The notes beneath the pieces are model-generated. The model ran no database searches and was not told where the DNA came from. It saw nothing but the letters and a program-made list of their open reading frames with translations. Shown piece by piece: positions 6,416-47,454 of a DNA stretch of 64,000 bases; the first letter of the stretch is position 1; each line of letters begins with the position of its first letter. The DNA is from Alphaproteobacteria bacterium (GTDB taxonomy: Bacteria > Pseudomonadota > Alphaproteobacteria > RF32 > CAG-239): contig JAZODJ010000028.1 of NCBI GenBank assembly GCA_045597005.1, positions 12,768 through 76,767 on the forward strand. The letters run 5' to 3'. The position numbers and the translations under genes are program-made.

Positions 6416-7128
6416 CAGATAAACCAAAATTTTACGGACGTCGCCAAGGACGCAAAATACGCAAAGCAAAATCCGGATTATTGGAAAATTTTTTACCAAA
6501 GATTTCCATAACTCCCCAATCTGTAATTTCAAAAGATATTTTCAATTGCAATGTATCTGAAATATACATGGAAATAGGCTTTGGTGATGGCGACCACCTC
6601 GCCGGACAATCACTAAAAAATCCGCATATCGGTTTTATAGGAGCAGAAGTCTTCAAAAACGGAGTAGCAAATTTACTATCTATAATCACAGGTATCAAAA
6701 AAAACAGTGATATATCCGAAGAAATTAAAATACTTTCCCCCCGTAGTGATAATATACGTGTTTGGAGTGATGATGTCAGAATTCTTTTCAAGCAAATTCC
6801 TGACGAATTTCTAAGCAAAATATTTTTATTATTTCCTGACCCTTGGCCCAAAAAACGCCATGCATCACGCCGTTTTATAAATCCTGATAATTTAAAAGAA
6901 ATCGCTCGTATACTAAAAAAAGGCGGCATATTACGTGTTGCTACTGATCATAAAGTCTACAAAAGTTGGACTTTACGCACACTTGCAAACGACCCCAATT
7001 TTCGTTGGACAGCTAGATCTAGTGATGATTGGCGTAATCCACCGACTGATTGGGTTGAAACTAAATATCAACGCAAAGCCATCCGCGAAGGACGCAAACC
7101 GGTATTTTTAGATTTTGAACGTCTTTAA
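6406..7128 (+). CDS. trmB: tRNA (guanine46-N7)-methyltransferase
   Basis: 240 aa; EIGFGDGDHL, FPDPWPKKRH, TDHKVY motifs. Confidence 0.9.
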   Translation: MLLTDKPKFYGRRQGRKIRKAKSGLLENFLPKISITPQSVISKDIFNCNVSEIYMEIGFGDGDHLAGQSLKNPHIGFIGAEVFKNGVANLLSIITGIKKNSDISEEIKILSPRSDNIRVWSDDVRILFKQIPDEFLSKIFLLFPDPWPKKRHASRRFINPDNLKEIARILKKGGILRVATDHKVYKSWTLRTLANDPNFRWTARSSDDWRNPPTDWVETKYQRKAIREGRKPVFLDFERL

Positions 7129-8568: not shown

Positions 8569-9627
8569 ATGAAAATATTGGTTGGGATGAGCGGCGGCGT
8601 TGATTCAAGTGTCGCCGCACTTCTTCTAAAACAAGCCGGTCATGATGTTATCGGCGCAACAATGAGCATTTGGGATGATTCTGATACCTTCCGTCAATTA
8701 ACCGGTAAAGGTTGCTTTTCTTCTCACGATGAAGACATATCTCAGGCCAAACAAATATGTCAAAACTTAAACATTCCTCATCTGATAGTCGACTGCACAG
8801 ATGAATTCAAGCAAATTGTCCTAAACAATTTTCGCAACGAATACAAAGCTGGAAGAACCCCAAATCCATGTGTAGTATGCAATTCGATGATTAAATTCAG
8901 TGTCCTTCCCGATAGCGCACGAAAACAAGGAATTATCTTTGATAAATTTGCTACAGGTCATTATGCACGTATCCATTTTAATAAAGCCACAGGGCTTTAC
9001 CAAATTATGCGTGGCCTAGACAGCAAAAAAGATCAATCGTACTTTCTTTATCGTCTCACACAAGAGCAATTAGCCGGAACAATTCTTCCTCTGGGAGAAA
9101 AAAACAAATTTGAAATCCGTGAATTAGCCAAACAAGCCGGCTTATCAGTTTCCGATAAACCTGATAGTCAAGATTTCTATACCGGACCATTAAATGATAT
9201 TTTGCAATTTCCCGCTCAATCAGGAACTTTCATCAATAAAGAAGGAAAAATACTAGGGCATCATAACGGTTACTGGAATTTTACTATTGGACAACGGCGA
9301 GGACTGGGCATATCAGCCGATAAGCCTTTATACGTTATTGATATCATTAAAGAGAGCAATAAAATCATTGTAGGATATGCTGATGAATGCCTTCAAACAA
9401 CTCTTACTGCTTCAAACTGGGTTTGGCAAATCCCAATACCTCAACAAACTTTTCATTGTCAAGCTCGTATTCGTTCATCTCAAACACCTGTTGATGTACG
9501 TCTGACTCCTTTATCAAACGATACTTTTGAAGTTACTTTTATGTCTCCTCAAAGTGCCATAACTCCAGGACAATCTGTTGTTTTGAACAATAACAACATG
9601 TTAATTGGAGGAGGAATAATAAACTAA
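8569..9627 (+). CDS. mnmA: tRNA 2-thiouridine(34) synthase
   Basis: MKILVGMSGGVDSS PP-loop, NPCVVCN, DQSYFLY; ATG 8569 preferred over TTG 8566. Confidence 0.9.
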   Translation: MKILVGMSGGVDSSVAALLLKQAGHDVIGATMSIWDDSDTFRQLTGKGCFSSHDEDISQAKQICQNLNIPHLIVDCTDEFKQIVLNNFRNEYKAGRTPNPCVVCNSMIKFSVLPDSARKQGIIFDKFATGHYARIHFNKATGLYQIMRGLDSKKDQSYFLYRLTQEQLAGTILPLGEKNKFEIRELAKQAGLSVSDKPDSQDFYTGPLNDILQFPAQSGTFINKEGKILGHHNGYWNFTIGQRRGLGISADKPLYVIDIIKESNKIIVGYADECLQTTLTASNWVWQIPIPQQTFHCQARIRSSQTPVDVRLTPLSNDTFEVTFMSPQSAITPGQSVVLNNNNMLIGGGIIN

Positions 9628-39232: not shown

Positions 39233-39307
39233 GGCCGGTTGGCAGAGTGGCTCATGCAGAGGACTGCAAATCCTTGTACATCGGTTCGATTCCGGTACCG
39301 GCCTCCA
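39233..39307 (+). tRNA. tRNA-Cys (GCA)
   Basis: 75 nt cloverleaf folded by hand: acceptor GGCCGGT/ACCGGCC, anticodon loop CTGCAAA, T-loop GGTTCGATTCC, encoded CCA. Confidence 0.95.
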
Positions 39308-39322
39308 AATATACCGTATTAT

Positions 39323-39397
39323 TCCGGCTTAGCTCAGCGGTAGAGCAATCGGCTGTTAACCGATTGGTCGCCTGTTCGAATCAGGCAGCCGGAGCCA
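39323..39397 (+). tRNA. tRNA-Asn (GTT)
   Basis: 75 nt: TCCGGCTTAGCTCAGCGGTAGAGC D-arm, anticodon stem ATCGG/CCGAT with loop CTGTTAA, T-arm CCTGTTCGAATCAGG, encoded CCA. Confidence 0.95.
39376..39397 (+). repeat. left copy of 22-nt direct repeat (tRNA-Asn 3' end; attL-like)
   Basis: TCGAATCAGGCAGCCGGAGCCA, identical to 47431..47452. Confidence 0.85.
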
Positions 39398-39405
39398 ACA
39401 TCCAG

Positions 39406-39440
39406 ATAAAGTCTTGTTTTTGCAAGACTTTATTTTTTTT
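39406..39440 (+). terminator. intrinsic terminator after tRNA-Asn
   Basis: 11-bp stem ATAAAGTCTTG/CAAGACTTTAT (39406..39416 / 39423..39433), then T7. Confidence 0.75.
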
Positions 39441-39583
39441 ATAAAATCGTAAAATCAAAAATTGCTAATAACTTCTGCTAATAAATTTCCTAAGTATGAG
39501 CCAACAAAAGGACACATACTGAACAGCCCAAATGGCAAACATCAATACATCAAAGCTAATGTTGATGAGTAAAAATCTCATCA

Positions 39584-41197
39584 TTAAAAATGTAAAGATA
39601 ATCCTATATTAAAACTATCTGAATATTTAGCATCGCTATAATGGAAATAATCAAAATAAACTTCATTATTTTCAGATACTTTATAACCAATATAAAAATT
39701 GTATTTTTCATCAAAACCTATATTATTTTGTTTGGCATTAAAATATTTTTCATAAGAAGTGATAATTTTTATATTATCACTAATTTTTGAAATAGCACCA
39801 ATTTGGGGAGAAATGTAAAAATTTGAGTAATCATCATAATGATAGCCAATTTTAGGTAAAAAATATACAGAAGTTGTTGAGATTTTTTTACTTACACCTA
39901 AACCAAACTCAAAAATAGGTTTTAATTCTGTTTCTTCATTGAATAAGTCATTTTCAAAACCTAAACGAAAATATTTAGAAAAACTATTTGTTGATGAATA
40001 ATCAATAATTGATTTCATCTTTAATATATCAATTTTATCAATGGTCAGTTTTTTATCCGCATTGAAGTAATTGAATGATACATCAAACATTTTGCTTTCT
40101 AAATCAGAAAAATAAGCATCTGAAATATCCCTAATATCCTGATAGACAGGACTAATATTCATATTAGTAATATTATTAGATAAATCTTGTGAAATTGACA
40201 ATCTTGTCGGTTTGGGAGCATTACCTATATAATTTAATCCAAATTTTTCTATTACTGTTCTTTGTGTTTCCGTCGGCTCTATGCTTATGTCTGATATTTT
40301 ATTATCGTCATGTAATTTTTGGATGTACTCAACAGGAGTAACAAATGGCTTTATTGTTTCCATGGAAAAATCTTTGTTTGCAACTTTTAATATACTTATT
40401 AAAGCCGTGTTACAATTATGAGATAATAAAGAATATTTTATATTTTTTTCTTTTAATTCCCATAAATGTTCTTTTAATCGTACTTTATCTTCATCATTTA
40501 AATATAATTTAAATTCCCATAATGAGCGTTGTTCTTTGTTTAAATATTCTGATGCTTTTTCTACATATGGCGATAGGATATAAACACCATCAATACCTGT
40601 TGTTAATACATCAATGTAAAATTTTATATTATTGGCATTATTAAAAGCCGCAAAATAACTAAACGCATGACTACGAGCGTTGCCATCAATTCTCAAAAAA
40701 GTATGTCCCATCATAGAAGATGGACTAAAATTATTTTCTGATGCAAAAACTACATATACATTTTCAAATAATACATTGTTTTTATATTCTTCATATTCCT
40801 TACAATGTGGTTTAGGAAATAATTCTTTGGATAAATTTAATGATTTAACAATATAATTAAACCTTGCAGGATACATACATATAGTATGTTTATCATTTAA
40901 TGATGCTTCATTTATTAATGATCTAAGTGTTGCTTCATATTCAGATTTTGGATTTATATATCCATCTGATGATAGGAAAAAATCGCTATTTGAATTTATA
41001 ACGCTTTTCCTACCATCATAATGTAATATATTTTTCCATTCTAATGAATCATAAAACTCTGCAGTTGTTTTTTTACTTAATTCTTCATATGTATAATTAG
41101 CATTAGCTGTATTACCATAAAGAAGAAAAAATAGCAAAAAACTACTTAATAGAGCATGAATCTTTACGATATACTGGAACAATGATATTATTATCAT
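39584..41197 (-). CDS. DUF4105 / Lnb N-terminal-domain-like protein with outer-membrane-type C-terminus
   Basis: 543-aa ORF (to 41215); signal-like ALLSSFLLFFLLYGNTANA; SSMMGHTFLRIDG motif, which I associate with DUF4105 from memory; ends IGLSLHF (terminal aromatic, beta-barrel-like); start uncertain, ATG 41197 overlaps the upstream gene by 56 nt. Confidence 0.55.
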   Translation of the reverse strand: MIIISLFQYIVKIHALLSSFLLFFLLYGNTANANYTYEELSKKTTAEFYDSLEWKNILHYDGRKSVINSNSDFFLSSDGYINPKSEYEATLRSLINEASLNDKHTICMYPARFNYIVKSLNLSKELFPKPHCKEYEEYKNNVLFENVYVVFASENNFSPSSMMGHTFLRIDGNARSHAFSYFAAFNNANNIKFYIDVLTTGIDGVYILSPYVEKASEYLNKEQRSLWEFKLYLNDEDKVRLKEHLWELKEKNIKYSLLSHNCNTALISILKVANKDFSMETIKPFVTPVEYIQKLHDDNKISDISIEPTETQRTVIEKFGLNYIGNAPKPTRLSISQDLSNNITNMNISPVYQDIRDISDAYFSDLESKMFDVSFNYFNADKKLTIDKIDILKMKSIIDYSSTNSFSKYFRLGFENDLFNEETELKPIFEFGLGVSKKISTTSVYFLPKIGYHYDDYSNFYISPQIGAISKISDNIKIITSYEKYFNAKQNNIGFDEKYNFYIGYKVSENNEVYFDYFHYSDAKYSDSFNIGLSLHF

Positions 41198-41537
41198 ATT
41201 TCCACATCGCTCCATTGGATATATCTGTTGTTGTTCCTGTCCATAAATTGAAATAATTAGCGAGGAAGAACATGTCCAAATGATTATCAGCCATTGTTAC
41301 TGTTTGTCTATGACATTTATCTTCTTTTACAGATATTGTTAAAGGTGTATTTCCCTTTGATACAGATATAACTGTTGGAAGAGTTACTGATTGCATACCA
41401 TCTGTGCTATTAATATCTGCTTTTACAGTATCTCCATTAGATGTCATAACATTAATATTTTGGGTTGTTCCATTAAACATCGTTGCACATGATGATAAAA
41501 CAAACATTATGCTACATATAAAACTTATCTTTTTCAT
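41142..41537 (-). CDS. lipoprotein (paralog A)
   Basis: 131 aa; lipobox VLSS-C; shares NINVMTS-G, TISV/TIQVK-GKC and TTD---GAMWKYD with the neighbouring gene. Confidence 0.7.
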   Translation of the reverse strand: MKKISFICSIMFVLSSCATMFNGTTQNINVMTSNGDTVKADINSTDGMQSVTLPTVISVSKGNTPLTISVKEDKCHRQTVTMADNHLDMFFLANYFNLWTGTTTDISNGAMWKYDNNIIVPVYRKDSCSIK

Positions 41538-41554
41538 AGGCAGTCCTTATATGT

Positions 41555-41950
41555 TTATTTTAAGCATTGTGTTTTTTTATTTACATTTACAACGACAGTA
41601 GAATCGTATTTCCACATTGCACCAGTTGTAGAATCTGTTGTAGAACCCAAAATGCCACCTGTTAAAAGATTACCCCAAAACCATGGCTCAATGCTTGATT
41701 TTGCCACAGATACAGTTTCACTATTACATTTTCCATCTTTTACCTGTATTGTTATATCTTGGCTATCTTTTTGAACAGAAATAAGTTGAGGCAATTTCGT
41801 TTCTCTCATTCCATTTTTTGTAAAAATGGTTGCTTCTACTTCACTACCGTCACTTGTCATGACATTAATATTTTGAGTTTTTCCTTTTATTATTGAGGCA
41901 CAACCTGATAAAATCGTTGCTGTCATCAATAGTGCTACTAATTTTTTCAT
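41555..41950 (-). CDS. lipoprotein (paralog B)
   Basis: 131 aa; lipobox ILSG-C; AAGGAAG SD 8 nt upstream; tandem paralog of 41142..41537. Confidence 0.7.
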   Translation of the reverse strand: MKKLVALLMTATILSGCASIIKGKTQNINVMTSDGSEVEATIFTKNGMRETKLPQLISVQKDSQDITIQVKDGKCNSETVSVAKSSIEPWFWGNLLTGGILGSTTDSTTGAMWKYDSTVVVNVNKKTQCLK

Positions 41951-41982
41951 ATGATTTAACTTCCTTTTCTTTAATTGTAATT

Positions 41983-42293
41983 AAAAAGAAAACCACCTTC
42001 TTAAAGGTGGTCGGAGAGTTCATCAATCATATTGCTTTAAATGATTCTTTTAGCCTTTAAAGTCAAAAAACTTCTGAACATACGCCAAAAGCTCCCCGAC
42101 CAAAAGAGTTTGAAACTATTTTAATCGGGGATATATCTATTATTAGCCTAATAAACAGCTAACAATATGACGATGTTATATCCTAACACCGAAAGCAATA
42201 AGAGCCGATGAAAGCTCCGTACCACATTGGTACTAAGTGTAAAATGTATTCCACACCTGACATCATATTAAAAAGCTGATAGTTAAAATGCAA
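41983..42293 (-). promoter_or_regulatory. promoter plus ~270-nt structured leader with terminator/antiterminator upstream of the lipoprotein operon
   Basis: Minus strand: TTGCAT-17 nt-TAATAT (complement of 42288..42293 and 42265..42270); terminator ACCACCUU/AAGGUGGU (41992..42011) plus UUUUCUUUUU; competing 10-bp helix (42092..42101 with 42009..42018). Confidence 0.45.
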
Positions 42294-42385
42294 TTAAAAT
42301 CATATAATTATTGGAAAATTATTTTGCTTTTTTATGTAAATTTGATTACACTGATAGCATACTGCATTTATGATGGTTTTATAAA

Positions 42386-42598
42386 ATGAAAAAAATATTC
42401 TTTGGGTTGATTTTGTTGGGAATTGTACTACCTGTTTTGGCTGCGGATAGCCCCATAGTAGTATTAAATGTTAAAAGAATGATATATCACAGTCCCAGTT
42501 GTCAGTGGGCGCATAGATGTACTAAAAATTGTATAAAAACAACCAAACAAGAAGCTATTGAACACGGAGCCAGACCTTGCAAGGTCTGTGGAGGTTAA
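42386..42598 (+). CDS. small secreted Ada-like zinc-binding-domain protein
   Basis: 70 aa; signal peptide MKKIFFGLILLGIVLPVLAA; YHSPSCQW...C...EA...GARPCKVC resembles the Ada metal-binding / sunset-type domain. Confidence 0.55.
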   Translation: MKKIFFGLILLGIVLPVLAADSPIVVLNVKRMIYHSPSCQWAHRCTKNCIKTTKQEAIEHGARPCKVCGG

Positions 42599-43782
42599 TA
42601 CTCTTCCTCAACTTGTTCCAAAGAACTTTCAACTAATTTTGCCAAATTTTCATTTATGTTACTTTTCATTTTTTCATATAAACTTTGTTGTGTATTAATA
42701 TATTCTTGATTTTCATTAAAAATGAAACTTTTTAATGTATTAAAACGTATCATTCGGTTAGTTTGTTTATTTAATCCTTCTGATGAAGCTAATTTATATT
42801 TTTTTATATCATCAAAAATTCCTTTCTCAGCAGGAGTTACACTATTGTCAATATTCATATCATTATCGAATATTCCATACATTTTTACAAAATCTTCCAA
42901 TCTATGTGTTATTACATCCGAAAACGTAATGTTTTCTCGCATCATATAGAAAAGTATGGAAAATACCGTATATAATTGGGATTTTTTTTGCAAAAACTTT
43001 ATCAGTATAGGTGAACCTAATAAAAATTCAATTTGAGTTGTTGCATTTATAATAGCTTGACGATCAATATCAGCATCATTATAATTCATTTTTAAATCTT
43101 CATATGCTCTATTTAAAGCTTTTTGATCACTTTGATCTATGATACCAGATCTAAACAAAAGAATAAGAGATGCACAAAATTCAACATCTTTCATTCTTTT
43201 GACATCAGCATTATTAAATAATTTATACTTCTCCCAAATAGATAAATCGGAAAGTTCTCGAGCCAATGCAGCAAACTCTCCAGATAGACTATTTCGTTTT
43301 TCTTGACTATTTAGGTTATAATCCGTAAGATTTAACCGTCTGAACATATTCACAATTTCATCTCTTGTAACTTTTTCATTTATATCTACAATCATTAATT
43401 GATAATTCCAGACTTCTTTTTTTGTTCCATCATCTAAATCTCTAAAATAACGATCCCCCCATTTTTCTTTTGATGTATCTTCTAATAAGGCATTTTTCTT
43501 TAATTTAAATTCATTGTTTACAAACTCAGTAATTGTCTTTATCCTTTGTTGTCCATCAACAATATGTGTAATGGACTCTCCTGTTTCTGGATTTGTATCA
43601 GCTTTCCATAAAAACAATTCTGGTATAATAAAGTTTAACAGAATTGTTTCAATTAATCTAATTTTATCATTTTCGTTCCAAACAGAGCGACGTTGATATG
43701 AATCATCCACAATCAGAGATTCTTCTGTAAACATATTATAAATATCACTAATAGTTTTTCGATTATTAGAAAATTGAAACAT
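42595..43782 (-). CDS. DUF262 (ParB/GmrS-like N-terminal domain) protein lacking a recognisable DUF1524/HNH domain
   Basis: 395 aa; SYQRRSVW and IVDGQQR signatures; no His-Me finger motif seen in the C-terminal half. Confidence 0.85.
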   Translation of the reverse strand: MFQFSNNRKTISDIYNMFTEESLIVDDSYQRRSVWNENDKIRLIETILLNFIIPELFLWKADTNPETGESITHIVDGQQRIKTITEFVNNEFKLKKNALLEDTSKEKWGDRYFRDLDDGTKKEVWNYQLMIVDINEKVTRDEIVNMFRRLNLTDYNLNSQEKRNSLSGEFAALARELSDLSIWEKYKLFNNADVKRMKDVEFCASLILLFRSGIIDQSDQKALNRAYEDLKMNYNDADIDRQAIINATTQIEFLLGSPILIKFLQKKSQLYTVFSILFYMMRENITFSDVITHRLEDFVKMYGIFDNDMNIDNSVTPAEKGIFDDIKKYKLASSEGLNKQTNRMIRFNTLKSFIFNENQEYINTQQSLYEKMKSNINENLAKLVESSLEQVEEEY

Positions 43783-43783
43783 A

Positions 43784-44398
43784 CTATACTCCTTTGGGTT
43801 CTTTTATAGTTTTACAAGCCTTTACAATTCCAGATAATTGATATTCTTCAAGGTCTTCCCAACTTCGATAAATTCTGTAATTTATAGGATGCATTACAGA
43901 TAGTTTATCTTGTAATGATTTGTTTGTTGGATCTTTCATCTTTTGCCATACTGTACGAATATCTTCTATTCCTGTTAAAAATTTTTCATCAATATATCCT
44001 CTAAAAATAGATCTTGTAAGATTCACATAAAAGTATTCTTGATATACTCGGAAAGCCTTTTTCTTTCTTAGTTGCTCCCAATAATATGAATATAATTTTT
44101 CTGAAACTAAAGCAATATCTATATCAGACGAATCTTCCATAAACGGTTTTAGACATTTTAACGGTGATAAACTATATCCGAGTTTTGCACTTCCTACAAG
44201 TTGAGATGAATGAAAACTTATATTAAAATTTTTTGATATAATTTCTTTAAAACAATCTAAACGATCTAATATTTCATCTGATGGAACTTTTAAATATTCA
44301 TTAAAATACCAATTATATGATTTAACTATATGTTTAAGATAGAAATCTTTTGCATCCATAGACAATAAATCGTTTTTTATATCTGTTAAACATACCAT
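43784..44398 (-). CDS. hypothetical protein, putative Pol-beta-fold nucleotidyltransferase
   Basis: 204 aa; QLVGSAKLGYS ... SSDIDIALVS fits hG[GS]...DxD of minimal NTases; start ATG shares one base with the MTase stop (TAATG). Confidence 0.5.
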   Translation of the reverse strand: MVCLTDIKNDLLSMDAKDFYLKHIVKSYNWYFNEYLKVPSDEILDRLDCFKEIISKNFNISFHSSQLVGSAKLGYSLSPLKCLKPFMEDSSDIDIALVSEKLYSYYWEQLRKKKAFRVYQEYFYVNLTRSIFRGYIDEKFLTGIEDIRTVWQKMKDPTNKSLQDKLSVMHPINYRIYRSWEDLEEYQLSGIVKACKTIKEPKGV

Positions 44399-45492
44399 TA
44401 TGCAGCCTTTCTTGTGTCTTCATAATATATATTTAAATAATCAAAAATATCTTGTGCAATTCCCTTTCCTAAAAGATATGGAACACCATTACCTATCATT
44501 TTAAACTTAAGGGATAGAGGAATATTATTAGGCAAACAAAATTCTTTTGGCAAAGATTGAATAGAAAGAGCCTCAGCTATGCTAATTCTGCGTAGTTCAT
44601 ATGGATGCAAGTGAACTTCATTATTTCCATATGCCGATGTTGGTGCGTATCTCCAACGATGTAGCCTCTTAAATGACTTTCGAGAAACGTCTCCTTCTTG
44701 TATTGTAAGGTATTTTTGCAAATTTTTTACTTTAAATATATCGTTTGCATTTTGGTGTTTTTTTACATCATTCTTAATAAACCAGTGCTCAACTGTTAAT
44801 TCTTCAATAATATTAGTTGGCTTTTCTATATATCCATTTTCATTAAACTCATTCAAGGTTGGCCAATTAAGTAATTTTATATCTTTTAAATTAAACTTTT
44901 TATGCTGACCAATAGAAAATTTACAACAATTTTGAAATATATTTCTATTGAAGCCAATAAGAAACAACCTATCTCTATATTGAGGAACGCCATATTCTAG
45001 GGCATTTTCTATGGAATCAAATAATTCATAGCCATTTTCATCTAAACGTTTTTTTATTTTCTCATAAAAAATTTTATGTTTACTAGTTTGATACAATCCT
45101 TTTACATTCTCTAAAACAAAAAAGTCTGGCCGACGTTTAATAATCAGATTTACATAAACATCTGTTAACCTTCCATTTTCACCTTCAACACCTTTGTTTT
45201 TTCCTGCTGTCGAAAAATCTGGACAAGGTGGTCCCCCTATGAATCCTACAAAATCCGAATCTGTTTTTTCTGAAAAAGTTTTGTTCCATACTTCATCTTT
45301 TAGATATTCTTCCACACTAAGGCTAGAATATCTATTTTCTGCTAATATTTTCTTTCGTGTGCTCTTATATGTTTTTAGAAAAACACTATTATACTCATTA
45401 ACAAATGAGATATTAAAGCCAGCTTTCTCAAACCCTAGGTCTAAAATTCCCAACCCTGAGAAAAAAGAATATACTTCCGCTTTCACTTTCAA
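44398..45492 (-). CDS. DNA (cytosine-5)-methyltransferase
   Basis: FSGLGILDLG (motif I), GGPPCPDFS (IV), FVLENVKGL (VI), QYRDRLFLIG (VIII), GNGVP (X); TTG 45492 or GTG 45486 start. Confidence 0.9.
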   Translation of the reverse strand: MKVKAEVYSFFSGLGILDLGFEKAGFNISFVNEYNSVFLKTYKSTRKKILAENRYSSLSVEEYLKDEVWNKTFSEKTDSDFVGFIGGPPCPDFSTAGKNKGVEGENGRLTDVYVNLIIKRRPDFFVLENVKGLYQTSKHKIFYEKIKKRLDENGYELFDSIENALEYGVPQYRDRLFLIGFNRNIFQNCCKFSIGQHKKFNLKDIKLLNWPTLNEFNENGYIEKPTNIIEELTVEHWFIKNDVKKHQNANDIFKVKNLQKYLTIQEGDVSRKSFKRLHRWRYAPTSAYGNNEVHLHPYELRRISIAEALSIQSLPKEFCLPNNIPLSLKFKMIGNGVPYLLGKGIAQDIFDYLNIYYEDTRKAA

Positions 45493-45602
45493 CCTTATTC
45501 AAAAAAAACTCTATAGTAAAATTTGCAAATATGTAGAATATTTTTATTCTATAGAGAGACCTTTTGCAAGTATATAATGGAATTAATGCAATTTTAATTT
45601 AT

Positions 45603-46919
45603 TCACTCCATATCCAGCAGCCACTCAAGCACATTCATTCGTTTAATACCGTTGTTTTCGCCAGAACCAAAGTCCATTGTCAGCAAAAATTTAGGGTAAT
45701 TATCTTCTATAGCTTCAAGTGGAGCAAGCTCTCGTTCTAATATGTCTGTTCCCAACACATTCAATGCAACTTGATAATATTCAACTATTCCGCCACTTTT
45801 TTTAGCAACAAAATCAACCTCAATATTTTTACCACCTTTGACTATTTTACCTACTGAAACTTGATAACCACGTCTTAACAGCTCTAAGTAAACCACATTT
45901 TCTAAAATGTGTCCTTGATCCATATCTTTGATACCCAACAATGCCGTACGTAGCCCTATATCCGCAACATAATATTTAGCATTACTATCAAGATATTGTT
46001 TGCCTTTGATATCATAACGGTCGCATTTATAAAGCAAAAAGCTATCTAATAACCCTTGCACCATTGTATCTATAGTTGGCACTGATATTTTATGTCCGCC
46101 AGCATTTAAACCTTTTTCTATGTTGCGGATAGATGTTTCATTACCGATATTATCAAACATATATTTTACCACGGCATCAAGCTTATTAGTATCTGCGATA
46201 TTAAAACGTTTAACTATATCCTTTTGAATTGTATTCAAATAAACAGTATCTAGCAAATAATCGCTTATTAGTTGTTTATCATAAACTAAGTTTAAGGTTT
46301 GAGGGAATCCACTTTCAGTTATATAATGAGAATAAACTGCCATTGGGTTATGCAAGCCTTCTATCTCATTTTTAGTTCTAGCATAAATGCCCGCAAACAT
46401 TGAATATGCAGAAAAATATTCCTTAAAAGAAAATGGTTGCATTTTAATTTCAATATATCTGCCACCTAACGAATTAGCCAAATCGCTGGAAAACATATAG
46501 GCATTTGAACCTGTCAAATACAAGTCAACATTATTTTGTAATCTTAACGCATTAGCGACTTTATCCCAATCTTTCAATAACTGTATTTCATCAATAAAGA
46601 CATAATTCATTTTTTTGGGGTTAAGAATTGATAAAACATAGTCCAATAACTTATTATAACCGACTAAAAAGTTTTCCTTATCATAAGAAAGACCGATTTT
46701 GTTAGTCTGTACCAAATCTTCCAGATTTATATTTACAATCTGGCTATCGTCAGCTTGTCTATTAGTGATTAAATCAAATTGATAAAGATAAAACAATTTG
46801 GATTTACCGCAACGTCTTACCCCTGTGATTATTTTTATTAAATCACTTTGCCCTTGCCATTTTTTCAGTTGCTCTATATATTGTGGTCTACCGACTATTC
46901 TTTCAGATGCACTTTGCAT
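45603..46919 (-). CDS. AAA_14/DUF4143-type ATPase
   Basis: 438 aa; Walker A GVRRCGKS, Walker B NYVFIDEIQ, C-terminal EVDFVAKK region as in DUF4143 proteins. Confidence 0.8.
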   Translation of the reverse strand: MQSASERIVGRPQYIEQLKKWQGQSDLIKIITGVRRCGKSKLFYLYQFDLITNRQADDSQIVNINLEDLVQTNKIGLSYDKENFLVGYNKLLDYVLSILNPKKMNYVFIDEIQLLKDWDKVANALRLQNNVDLYLTGSNAYMFSSDLANSLGGRYIEIKMQPFSFKEYFSAYSMFAGIYARTKNEIEGLHNPMAVYSHYITESGFPQTLNLVYDKQLISDYLLDTVYLNTIQKDIVKRFNIADTNKLDAVVKYMFDNIGNETSIRNIEKGLNAGGHKISVPTIDTMVQGLLDSFLLYKCDRYDIKGKQYLDSNAKYYVADIGLRTALLGIKDMDQGHILENVVYLELLRRGYQVSVGKIVKGGKNIEVDFVAKKSGGIVEYYQVALNVLGTDILERELAPLEAIEDNYPKFLLTMDFGSGENNGIKRMNVLEWLLDME

Positions 46920-47430
46920 TGTTTATTCTCCTTAAGCTATATGTTAATTATATTTAACAAAAAATAAAAAATCAAGTATTTTGTAAAATACATTTAACAA
47001 AATCTCAATACTATCGTTTTTCGTAAAACAGAATTAACAATCAAATTGTTCCGCATTTTTTCGCACACGTAAACAGATTTGTCTTAAAACTGCATAATTT
47101 ATCGTCAAAAATCAATTTCTGCACTCAAAACGCAAGTAATCAAAGGCAAACAGCATATGAGTAGTCAAGTATTCCTTGACTACTGATTAAAATACGGAAA
47201 AACGGGGGATTTTACTTTTTGCAGTTATTCGGAAATTCCAAACAGTTCAATTTTTACGCCCACAATTCCTTAAAACCATTATTGACAGCCGATTACAGAT
47301 GATTTATGTTATTAGCAGTGCTAATAACTTTTGCTAATACTTTCGAAATTTAGGTCGGAGCCAGTATTTTGATAAGTTATTGATTTTACATAACAACAAG
47401 GCTTGTTTTATGAAAATATTTCTGGATTTG

Positions 47431-47452
47431 TCGAATCAGGCAGCCGGAGCCA
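47431..47452 (+). repeat. right copy of 22-nt direct repeat (displaced tRNA-Asn 3' end; attR-like)
   Basis: TCGAATCAGGCAGCCGGAGCCA, identical to 39376..39397; no tRNA body upstream of it. Confidence 0.85.
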
Positions 47453-47454
47453 AT

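Follow-up and report, generated by a model that had tools for sequence, protein, structure and literature searches.

A conserved pair of an NTase-like protein and an NsnA-like DUF262 protein, coupled to a C5-methyltransferase in a candidate mobile defence module

The window analysed here is a stretch of 64,000 nucleotides from the genome of an uncultured alphaproteobacterium (GenBank assembly GCA_045597005.1, contig JAZODJ010000028.1, positions 12,768 to 76,767 of the forward strand), and our subject is a three-gene operon on its minus strand, within an island at a tRNA-Asn gene (Table 1). Gene 1 encodes a C5-cytosine DNA methyltransferase (MTase), gene 2 a small protein of an undescribed family with motifs like those of nucleotidyltransferases (NTases), and gene 3 an NsnA-like ParB/DUF262 protein. 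The operon had been singled out, from the DNA letters and their translations alone, as a candidate non-canonical defence module. That original prediction overlooked what we regard as the main finding, namely that gene 2 and the DUF262 gene are a real, conserved two-gene core. We also suggest, with moderate confidence, that the three genes together form a horizontally mobile, methylation-coupled, restriction-modification (R-M)-like defence module built on a sensor–enzyme pair.

The three open reading frames (ORFs) are tightly packed, and both junctions lie where the original prediction had placed them. The stop codon of gene 1 and the start codon of gene 2 have one A in common (TAATG, 44400..44396), and gene 2 is joined to gene 3 by TAGtATG (43786..43780). 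Strong Shine-Dalgarno-like sequences precede gene 2 (AAAGG) and gene 3 (AAAGGAG), and no terminator-like sites were found between the three genes. For gene 1, an alternative start codon, GTG at 45486, has better spacing to an AAGG sequence than the TTG at 45492. Upstream lies a sigma-70-like sequence, TTAAAA-17-TATACT (45597-45569, minus strand), which is a consensus match only, at 9 of 12 positions. The motifs reported for the three proteins are likewise all present: FSGLG, GGPPCPDFS, ENVKGL, QYRDRLF and GNGVP in gene 1, QLVGSAKLGYS and SSDIDIALVS in gene 2, and SYQRRSVW and VDGQQR in gene 3. All the related loci that we examined show the same gene order and close packing, and the arrangement is not a matter of chance.

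Table 1. Positions of the operon genes and accompanying features in the window.
Feature	Position	Strand	Remarks
C5-cytosine DNA methyltransferase (gene 1)	44398..45492	-	364 aa, counted from TTG 45492
NTase-like protein (gene 2), undescribed family, obligate upstream partner of the DUF262 gene	43784..44398	-	204 aa
NsnA-like ParB/DUF262 protein (gene 3)	42595..43782	-	395 aa
Intergenic region 5' of the MTase gene, probable operon promoter	45493..45602	-	110 nt
AAA_14 + DUF4143 ATPase, PADLOC candidate PDC-S01, context only	45603..46919	-	Pfam and PADLOC
attL-like copy of 23-nt direct repeat (tRNA-Asn 3' end)	39376..39398	+	repeat TCGAATCAGGCAGCCGGAGCCAA
attR-like copy of 23-nt direct repeat, right end of island	47431..47453	+	100% identical to attL-like copy

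Loci of the clade to which the window operon belongs were drawn from an exact look-up (7 loci) and from 24 species genomes. Every one with enough upstream sequence has the order C5-MTase, gene 2, DUF262 gene, with an MTase orthologue (53-81% identity) directly upstream of the pair and junctions of -73 to +3 nt, mostly -8 to +3. Co-occurrence of the three genes in other genomes had been set beforehand as a test, and these loci supply it, with 24 non-identical trios for which the three matrices of pairwise identity are correlated (r=0.96-0.97). The loci come from Oscillospiraceae, Lachnospiraceae, Christensenellales, Erysipelotrichaceae, Synergistes, a Proteobacteria metagenome-assembled genome (MAG) and Victivallaceae. 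Homologues of gene 2, of ~205 aa, number in the hundreds, and DUF262 partners of the window clade occur on hundreds of contigs, for example in Enterocloster clostridioformis and Clostridium sp. CAG:149. In Clostridia from the human gut and the rumen the trio is common. The suggestion that an orphan MTase merely travels along with the other two genes is not supported, as the MTase is translationally coupled to the pair and co-diverges with it.

Links between the pair and methylases extend beyond the window clade. An orthologous MTase is present in a second clade (L071), with identities of 49, 42 and 46% for the MTase, gene 2 and the DUF262 protein, respectively. A remote trio (L076, 3333-7058; ~25-29% identity) combines a coupled 530-aa C5-MTase with a 502-aa DUF262 protein, and this MTase is unrelated to that of the window; a partial alignment of the two gives no more than 25% identity. 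In yet another clade (L058 1757-4049, L063 2181-4539 and L066 2254-4540), the pair is preceded at a distance of 440 nt by two C5-MTase genes that are arranged in tandem and overlap. All linked methylases are of the C5-cytosine type, in keeping with the preference for cytosine modifications that is known of DUF262 sensors, and C5-MTases have been captured repeatedly and apparently independently.

Three peculiarities of these loci may be recorded here. At its C-terminus, the remote DUF262 protein of L076 carries an additional domain of ~130 aa, which matches nothing in Pfam and may be an added DNA-reading module. The tandem C5-MTases recall systems in which each strand of an asymmetric site is methylated separately. 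Finally, in the loci most closely related to the window operon (L001-L003), an inverted MTase fragment (aa 282-353, 69% identity; 6528-6743, minus strand) lies ~125 nt upstream of the intact MTase and is a rearrangement remnant.

The pair itself is far more widely distributed than the trio. At ~75 loci, wherever downstream sequence was available, a gene 2 homologue is immediately followed by a gene for a full-length NsnA-like DUF262 protein. Scans of metagenomes (32 loci) and viral sequences (11 loci), seeded with sub-alignments of two other clades (A4 and A5) because the diversity of alignment A3 was too great for this purpose, gave DUF262 as the next gene in every locus with downstream sequence, and five isolate genomes have the DUF262 gene directly after the gene 2 homologue. 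On a Pseudoalteromonas plasmid the gene 2 homologue (33% identity) overlaps a 358-aa DUF262 gene and no methylase is nearby, and stand-alone pairs with a 14-nt overlap are found in Teredinibacter, Acinetobacter, Nonlabens and Flavobacterium. Identity matrices of the two proteins correlate at r=0.96 (Mantel p≈0.001; 55 non-identical pairs); like the correlations among trios, this is co-inheritance as a unit, not physical contact. A complex between the products of genes 2 and 3 is hinted at by two fused ORFs, either of which may be a sequencing artefact. One is a 628-aa read-through in a viral contig (L037 5863-7749, the same as L073; IMGVR_UViG_2910832237_000010) in which the gene 2 stop codon is lost, and the other a partial fusion of the two families in a metagenomic protein of 392 aa (P0270). 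A conserved third gene in the pair-only loci was considered and rejected, the neighbours being heterogeneous.

The earlier assignment of gene 1 as a C5-MTase with every motif is borne out by three models: Pfam DNA_methylase (E=3.1e-53, full length), TIGR00675 dcm (1e-48) and PADLOC MTase_II (PDLC03355, 1e-132). Motifs I, IV, VI, VIII and X are all present in the translation, and among solved structures M.HaeIII comes closest to it, in the catalytic half (7e-32).

Gene 3 is by its profile matches a full-length NsnA-like protein, with a ParB/DUF262 NTPase domain followed by an all-helical, ParBDB-like C-terminal domain. PADLOC NsnA is matched at 6.6e-34, with aa 6-354 of the protein aligned to positions 48-379 of a profile of 385, and a DUF262 protein of the pair-only clade reaches 1.9e-40; PD-T4-2_A is matched by gene 3 at 1e-17. 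The Pfam match to GmrSD_N/DUF262 (2.7e-20) covers aa 14-165 only, the C-terminal half is predicted to be all-helical, and neither a DUF1524 match, even at E<=1, nor any nuclease family was detected in the protein, in agreement with its original description as a DUF262 protein lacking a DUF1524/HNH domain. Among 55 partners of gene 2 homologues the DGQQR motif is invariant (55/55). The NTPase motifs Q30-R31…W35, D76-G-Q-Q-R80 and F147.R149.N151 are conserved in at least 54 of them, and E161, R196, D199, Y329, R343 and R346 are likewise conserved. The AlphaFold2 (AF2) model of gene 3 is poor, with a predicted local distance difference test (pLDDT) score of 59.5, and below 50 in the N-terminal domain, from a shallow alignment (31 sequences, >=59% identity); Foldseek with this model was uninformative, and PDB sequence searches with gene 3 and with alignment A2 returned nothing.

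Gene 2 was said at the outset to belong to no nameable family, and we found none in Pfam, NCBIfam or PADLOC; PDB sequence searches were empty, and the sole family match is the unannotated phrog_32008 (1e-10). The family is absent from PADLOC-DB v2, in which neither the window protein nor nine diverse members matched any model. An exhaustive profile search nevertheless gave 1,025 clusters at 50% identity (E<=1e-3), or 297 at E<=1e-10, nearly all of them single-domain proteins of ~200 aa. The phage GenBank collection yielded no match to gene 2 and the plasmids a single one, and an exact-sequence look-up of the window protein recorded no contig.

Four residues of gene 2 (G69, S91, D92 and D94) are invariant across 98 diverse homologues, and G69, S70, K72, S76, S91, D92, D94 and S99 in all 55 homologues derived from loci. 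The pattern GS…SDxD fits the hG[GS]…SDhDh signature of Pol-beta-type NTases. In the AF2 model (pLDDT 90.4; predicted template modelling score, pTM, 0.86), GS lies at the end of strand 65-68 and the start of helix 70-73, and DxD on strand 93-98. NTP_transf_2 is matched by 16 of 45 close and 8 of 98 diverse homologues, aligned on the SDIDIA strand, and Polbeta by 6 of the 45, in both cases mostly with sub-threshold scores. A 286-aa homologue (P0005), in which the GS…DxD segment is internally duplicated, possibly as a sequencing artefact, gave the best E-values (3.7e-5 and 1.1e-5). Some UniRef entries of the family are auto-named 'nucleotidyltransferase'. To judge by these motifs, gene 2 is probably an active enzyme with an NTase-like centre. 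Homology to a known type II endonuclease or to Vsr was looked for by family, PDB and Foldseek searches and none was found. Three other assignments were rejected: Toprim (no conserved Glu, no DxDxxG), PD-(D/E)xK (no conserved Lys after DxD) and HEPN (no Rx4-6H, and a mixed alpha/beta fold).

We infer a defence role for the trio from its conservation as a unit, its R-M and mobile context and the likeness of gene 3 to known sensors. In the module that we favour, the C5-MTase would mark self by methylating a specific cytosine context, both the target site and the protective role being presumed. Gene 3, as an NsnA-type sensor, would read DNA and its cytosine-modification state with its NTPase and helical DNA-binding domains, by analogy with GmrSD, BrxU, SspE, Dazbog and Menshen. 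Gene 2 would be its obligate partner in a complex, catalytic by virtue of a Pol-beta-type GS…SDxD centre whose fold is only probable. DNA without the cognate 5-methylcytosine (m5C) would bring about NTP-driven activation of the complex and thereby trigger the gene 2 enzyme, which we consider the least secure step. Gene 2 might then serve as the effector or as an activating step, through nucleotidylation of a protein or nucleic acid. The pair-only relatives would be the same module without a linked methylase, probably tuned to another DNA feature such as phage cytosine modifications. An R-M-like logic is favoured because the methylase is translationally coupled to the pair and co-diverges with it, as protective methylases do, and methylase-linked ParB-DUF262 proteins have been proposed elsewhere as ones that 'may target non-modified genomes' (PMC12065111).

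Several results weigh against such a module. A Foldseek search of the confident gene 2 model (pLDDT 90) against PDB and BFVD gave nothing significant (best match pol lambda, E=1.1), and PDB sequences searched by phmmer and with profiles of the gene 2 family (alignments A1 and A3) yielded either nothing or noise. In the AF2 model three helices separate the DxD strand from the one that follows, and among residues 95-175 of the 55 homologues there is no invariant acidic column that could provide a third carboxylate; E181, which is conserved (95% acidic), is located after strand 172-177. The NTase assignment is therefore one at the level of motifs only. Of the original prediction, the NTase fold is weakly supported: the invariant GS…SDxD and the sub-threshold NTP_transf_2 matches speak for it, and a confident model with no Foldseek match speaks against it. 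Moreover, at least 25 loci with at least 1.2 kb of upstream sequence carry the pair without a linked MTase. In those hosts the pair cannot constitutively kill unmethylated DNA, and triggering by unmethylated DNA may be a mistaken step for the trio as well. The gene order, with the NTase first, resembles that of antitoxin-first toxin-antitoxin (TA) operons, and the trio contains no recognisable nuclease or HEPN effector of the kind seen in other nuclease-less DUF262 systems.

A more specific proposal is that the pair is a widespread, unnamed two-gene immune module, with a DNA-sensing NTPase of the ParB type that turns on an NTase effector, and that its MTase-coupled forms constitute a nuclease-free R-M class in which unmethylated DNA triggers nucleotidylation. 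Cleavage would then be replaced by nucleotidylation of DNA ends, tRNA or protein, or by synthesis of a nucleotide signal. We offer this version only tentatively, and consider it doubtful as it stands.

Alternatively, the ParB-like DUF262 domain could itself be an NTP-dependent DNase or nickase, the 'R' of a classical Type II-like system. Gene 2 would then regulate or assemble it, for example by an MNT-style nucleotidylation that holds the nuclease off until methylation is established. ParB-like domains are among the four endoDNase folds of R-M systems, and an operon of a ParB nuclease, a DNA methylase and a HEPN protein has been described (PMC3710099). The DUF262 domain of gene 3 (1e-6) and that of the pair-only clade (3e-9) have weak matches to PDLC03418, a PADLOC REase_II model, the translational coupling is M-R-like, and the NTase-first order would place gene 2 in the position of a regulator or antitoxin. 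We nonetheless think it unlikely that gene 3 is the nuclease. For characterised DUF262 proteins, the literature cited here (PMC10952713, PMC12065111) assigns the nuclease activity to another domain or to a partner: to DUF1524 (GmrSD, BrxU and SspE), to a predicted OLD nuclease or NsnC (Menshen) or to HEPN (PD-T4-2); the pair-only loci survive without a linked MTase; and R196, R343, R346 and Y329 of gene 3 resemble DNA-binding residues, not a metal site.

Every characterised DUF262 sensor recognises modified DNA (PMC10952713): GmrSD glucosylated 5-hydroxymethylcytosine (glc-5hmC), BrxU 5mC, 5hmC and glc-5hmC, SspE phosphorothioate and Dazbog methylated DNA. The pair could be Type IV-like or SspE-like, binding modified cytosines. 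Pairs on their own would attack modified phage DNA, and in the trio the host m5C laid down by the linked MTase would not protect but would license the DUF262 NTPase, as phosphorothioate does for SspE. One binding property would then explain both the existence of pairs without an MTase and the exclusively C5-type methylases that have been recruited. An m5C-binding effector beside an m5C writer, on the other hand, risks self-attack, and no mechanism of discrimination is evident; the AspBHI-like gene beside one trio, described below, shows merely that m5C-dependent and m5C-writing systems can coexist. On balance we find modification sensing of this kind improbable.

HEPN proteins are the usual partners of MNT antitoxins. 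The small overlapping bicistron, which is widespread, mobile, often isolated among housekeeping genes and often near integrases, could be a type VII-like TA or addiction pair. Gene 2, with a GS…SDxD motif like that of MNT antitoxins, would neutralise a toxic DUF262 protein, or, in the reverse arrangement, would be an AbiEii/MenT-like NTase toxin; the pair would stabilise mobile elements, with the MTase a co-selected second addiction function. A DUF262 protein does pair with a HEPN protein in PD-T4-2 (PMC10952713), but neither gene 2 nor gene 3 contains HEPN or a known toxin domain, and the gene 2 family has no match to PADLOC AbiE or other models. The co-diverging, coupled MTase is also unlike a hitch-hiker, and the MTase-linked loci lie in R-M islands. 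A TA or addiction pair is to us distinctly improbable; TA and defence functions are not mutually exclusive. The R-M-like and TA-like hypotheses of the original prediction are inseparable by sequence.

DndB is regulatory for phosphorothioation, and DpdB acts in the insertion of 7-deazaguanine. It is very improbable that the pair is such a DNA-modification accessory, regulating or extending the MTase in epigenetic control or hypermodification and not in defence: ParB-like DGQ(Q/H)R proteins do serve modification machineries, DndB being the ParB-type NTPase of the DndABCDE system (PMC12065111), and DpdB weakly matches the DGQQR segment of gene 3, but that match is a 40-residue motif with 13.9 bits against a cut-off of 300, most pairs have no modification gene nearby, and the context is one of defence and mobile elements.

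The R-M-like module remains the reading that we carry into a comparison with known systems. The nuclease-less DUF262 systems Dazbog, Menshen and PD-T4-2 and the modification-sensing NTPases GmrSD, BrxU and SspE have been described (PMC10952713, PMC12065111). The ParB-DUF262 plus ParBDB architecture is that of the Menshen sensor NsnA, and some Menshen loci are methylase-linked (PMC12065111). Gene 3 has the full NsnA architecture, a sensor without a nuclease domain, but Menshen (NsnA-NsnB-NsnC) adds the ABC ATPase NsnB (AAA_15 + DUF3696) and the inPIN-nuclease NsnC, whereas here the core is of two genes with a ~200-aa NTase-like protein upstream. Neither NsnB nor NsnC was found downstream of gene 3 in the window, where a convergent 70-aa ORF lies instead, or in the related loci, and the one ATPase near the window operon is of the AAA_14/DUF4143 type. 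PD-T4-2 (DUF262 + RiboL-PSP HEPN) also joins a nuclease-less DUF262 protein to one small partner, and its A component matches gene 3. There the partner is HEPN, whereas gene 2 has GS…SDxD, no Rx4-6H and no HEPN match, and is encoded first. The same three-part logic, including a DNA methylase, is found in the MAE_28990 HEPN + ParB nuclease + DNA methylase operons, which were predicted to be R-M-like (PMC3710099, Anantharaman et al. 2013); again the partner there is HEPN, and here it is not. Nor did anything point to Dazbog (DzbA + DUF262-type DzbB), since the PADLOC matches (E<=1) of genes 2 and 3 included no Dzb model.

GmrSD, BrxU and SspE have in common with gene 3 an N-terminal DUF262 domain with DGQQR, and their helical middle domain is homologous to ParBDB (PMC12065111). 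They differ in having a DUF1524 His-Me (HNH-like) nuclease domain, where the present system has two chains and an ordinary C5-MTase. SspE is nevertheless a precedent for a DUF262 sensor that is genetically coupled to a cognate DNA-modification module. Type II R-M systems are alike in the coupling of a C5-MTase to downstream genes, in mobility, in their presence in R-M islands and in co-divergence; they differ in that no recognisable restriction endonuclease (REase) fold (PD-(D/E)xK, HNH, GIY-YIG or phospholipase D, PLD) is present in gene 2 or gene 3, and in that the pair is widespread without a linked M gene. HEPN-MNT type VII TA systems and AbiEii/MenT similarly encode a small hGS…SDhDh protein first in an overlapping bicistron, but the partner is HEPN or AbiEi, and gene 2 falls below the NTase Pfam threshold and has no Foldseek likeness to solved NTases; it differs further in having ~22 residues from GS to DxD and predicted helices after the DxD strand.

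No description of the gene 2 + DUF262 pair was found in a full-text literature search, which left out most subscription-journal papers. As an R-M-like defence based on DUF262 it would be of a kind already known, the novelty lying in its enzymatic partner. If we are correct, a small NTase-like enzyme would be a new class of partner for DUF262/ParB sensors, beside the HNH, HEPN, OLD and BECR nucleases, and the pair coupled to the MTase would make up an R-M-like system in which no nuclease can be recognised. This raises the question of whether methylation-based discrimination between self and non-self can be wired to a non-nucleolytic effector. Gene 2 also represents a large orphan family, of ~1,000 clusters at 50% identity, for which the genomic partner can be fully predicted. 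The trio could also be an unrecognised barrier to transformation and to phage therapy in gut and rumen Clostridia, and a source of unexplained m5C motifs in Clostridia methylomes.

The flanks of the trio vary by locus and are often complete R-M systems. Its neighbours of this kind include a second C5-MTase with an EcoO109I-family REase, EcoRII with Vsr, DUF4928 with Vsr, and AspBHI-like and Eco57I-type genes. Neighbours of the pair on its own include integrases, a CI repressor, Psu and terminase/portal genes, as is typical of the positions of prophage or satellite cargo. In a Blautia locus (L011, 4563-5879), an AspBHI-like gene (RE_AspBHI_N + Mrr_cat) lies immediately upstream of the trio MTase. 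AspBHI is m5C-dependent; if the AspBHI-like enzyme is as well, the sequence contexts of the enzyme and of the trio MTase must differ, and the neighbour is a possible handle on the specificity of the MTase.

Directly upstream of the operon promoter region, the window carries an ATPase gene with Pfam matches to AAA_14 (7e-28) and DUF4143 (4e-19) and a match to the PADLOC single-gene candidate PDC-S01 (3.7e-127). Its role as a fourth component of the operon was rejected, since a tblastn search turned up no homologue beside the trio at other loci except L004/L009, a Clostridia MAG in which a distant AAA_14/DUF4143 gene is directly upstream of the trio. It may be a recurrent, non-obligate neighbour. 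On the other side, the convergent 70-aa ORF (42386-42598, plus strand) has a 4-nt overlap with the stop of the DUF262 gene; its N-terminus resembles a signal peptide, and its C-terminus is rich in Cys and scores 22.1 bits for Pfam Ada_Zn_binding against a threshold of 23.

The operon had been placed within a tRNA-Asn island, and this island is real, with a perfect terminal repeat, deviant GC content and an empty site in a conspecific strain. A tRNA-Cys gene and the tRNA-Asn gene (39323-39397) together occupy 39233-39397, and the repeat, TCGAATCAGGCAGCCGGAGCCAA, consists of the last 22 nt of tRNA-Asn and the next base; its two copies are 8,055 bp apart. The GC content is 23-33% between the repeats as against 36-41% outside. 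A conspecific 226-kb contig (L082), with flanks 99.1-99.6% identical, is free of the island, and gyrA-MIF is joined there to tRNA-Asn through ~186 nt between two att-like sequences (9066-9274). In another strain, different cargo occupies the site, with a 574-aa flagellin-C-like ORF (L083, 1-2527). Because a 99%-identical strain has no island and another strain has other cargo, the operon is recently acquired cargo at a variable tRNA hotspot. No integrase-like ORF is present in 39399-47430.

Some further observations concern the island as a whole. Many assemblies break at the tRNA-Asn site, just past rpiB. A second direct repeat, of 21 nt and 95% identity, TGCTAATAACTT[C/T]TGCTAATA, lies just inside both island ends (39463-39483 and 47319-47339) and might be a binding site for a recombinase or regulator. 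The island also carries cargo unrelated to the operon: a 543-aa Lnb_N/DUF7843/DUF7840 protein is encoded at 39584-41215, and after it come two tandem, paralogous genes for lipoprotein-like proteins of 131 aa (41142-41537 and 41555-41950, minus strand), which have in common a 53-nt repeat with 74% identity.

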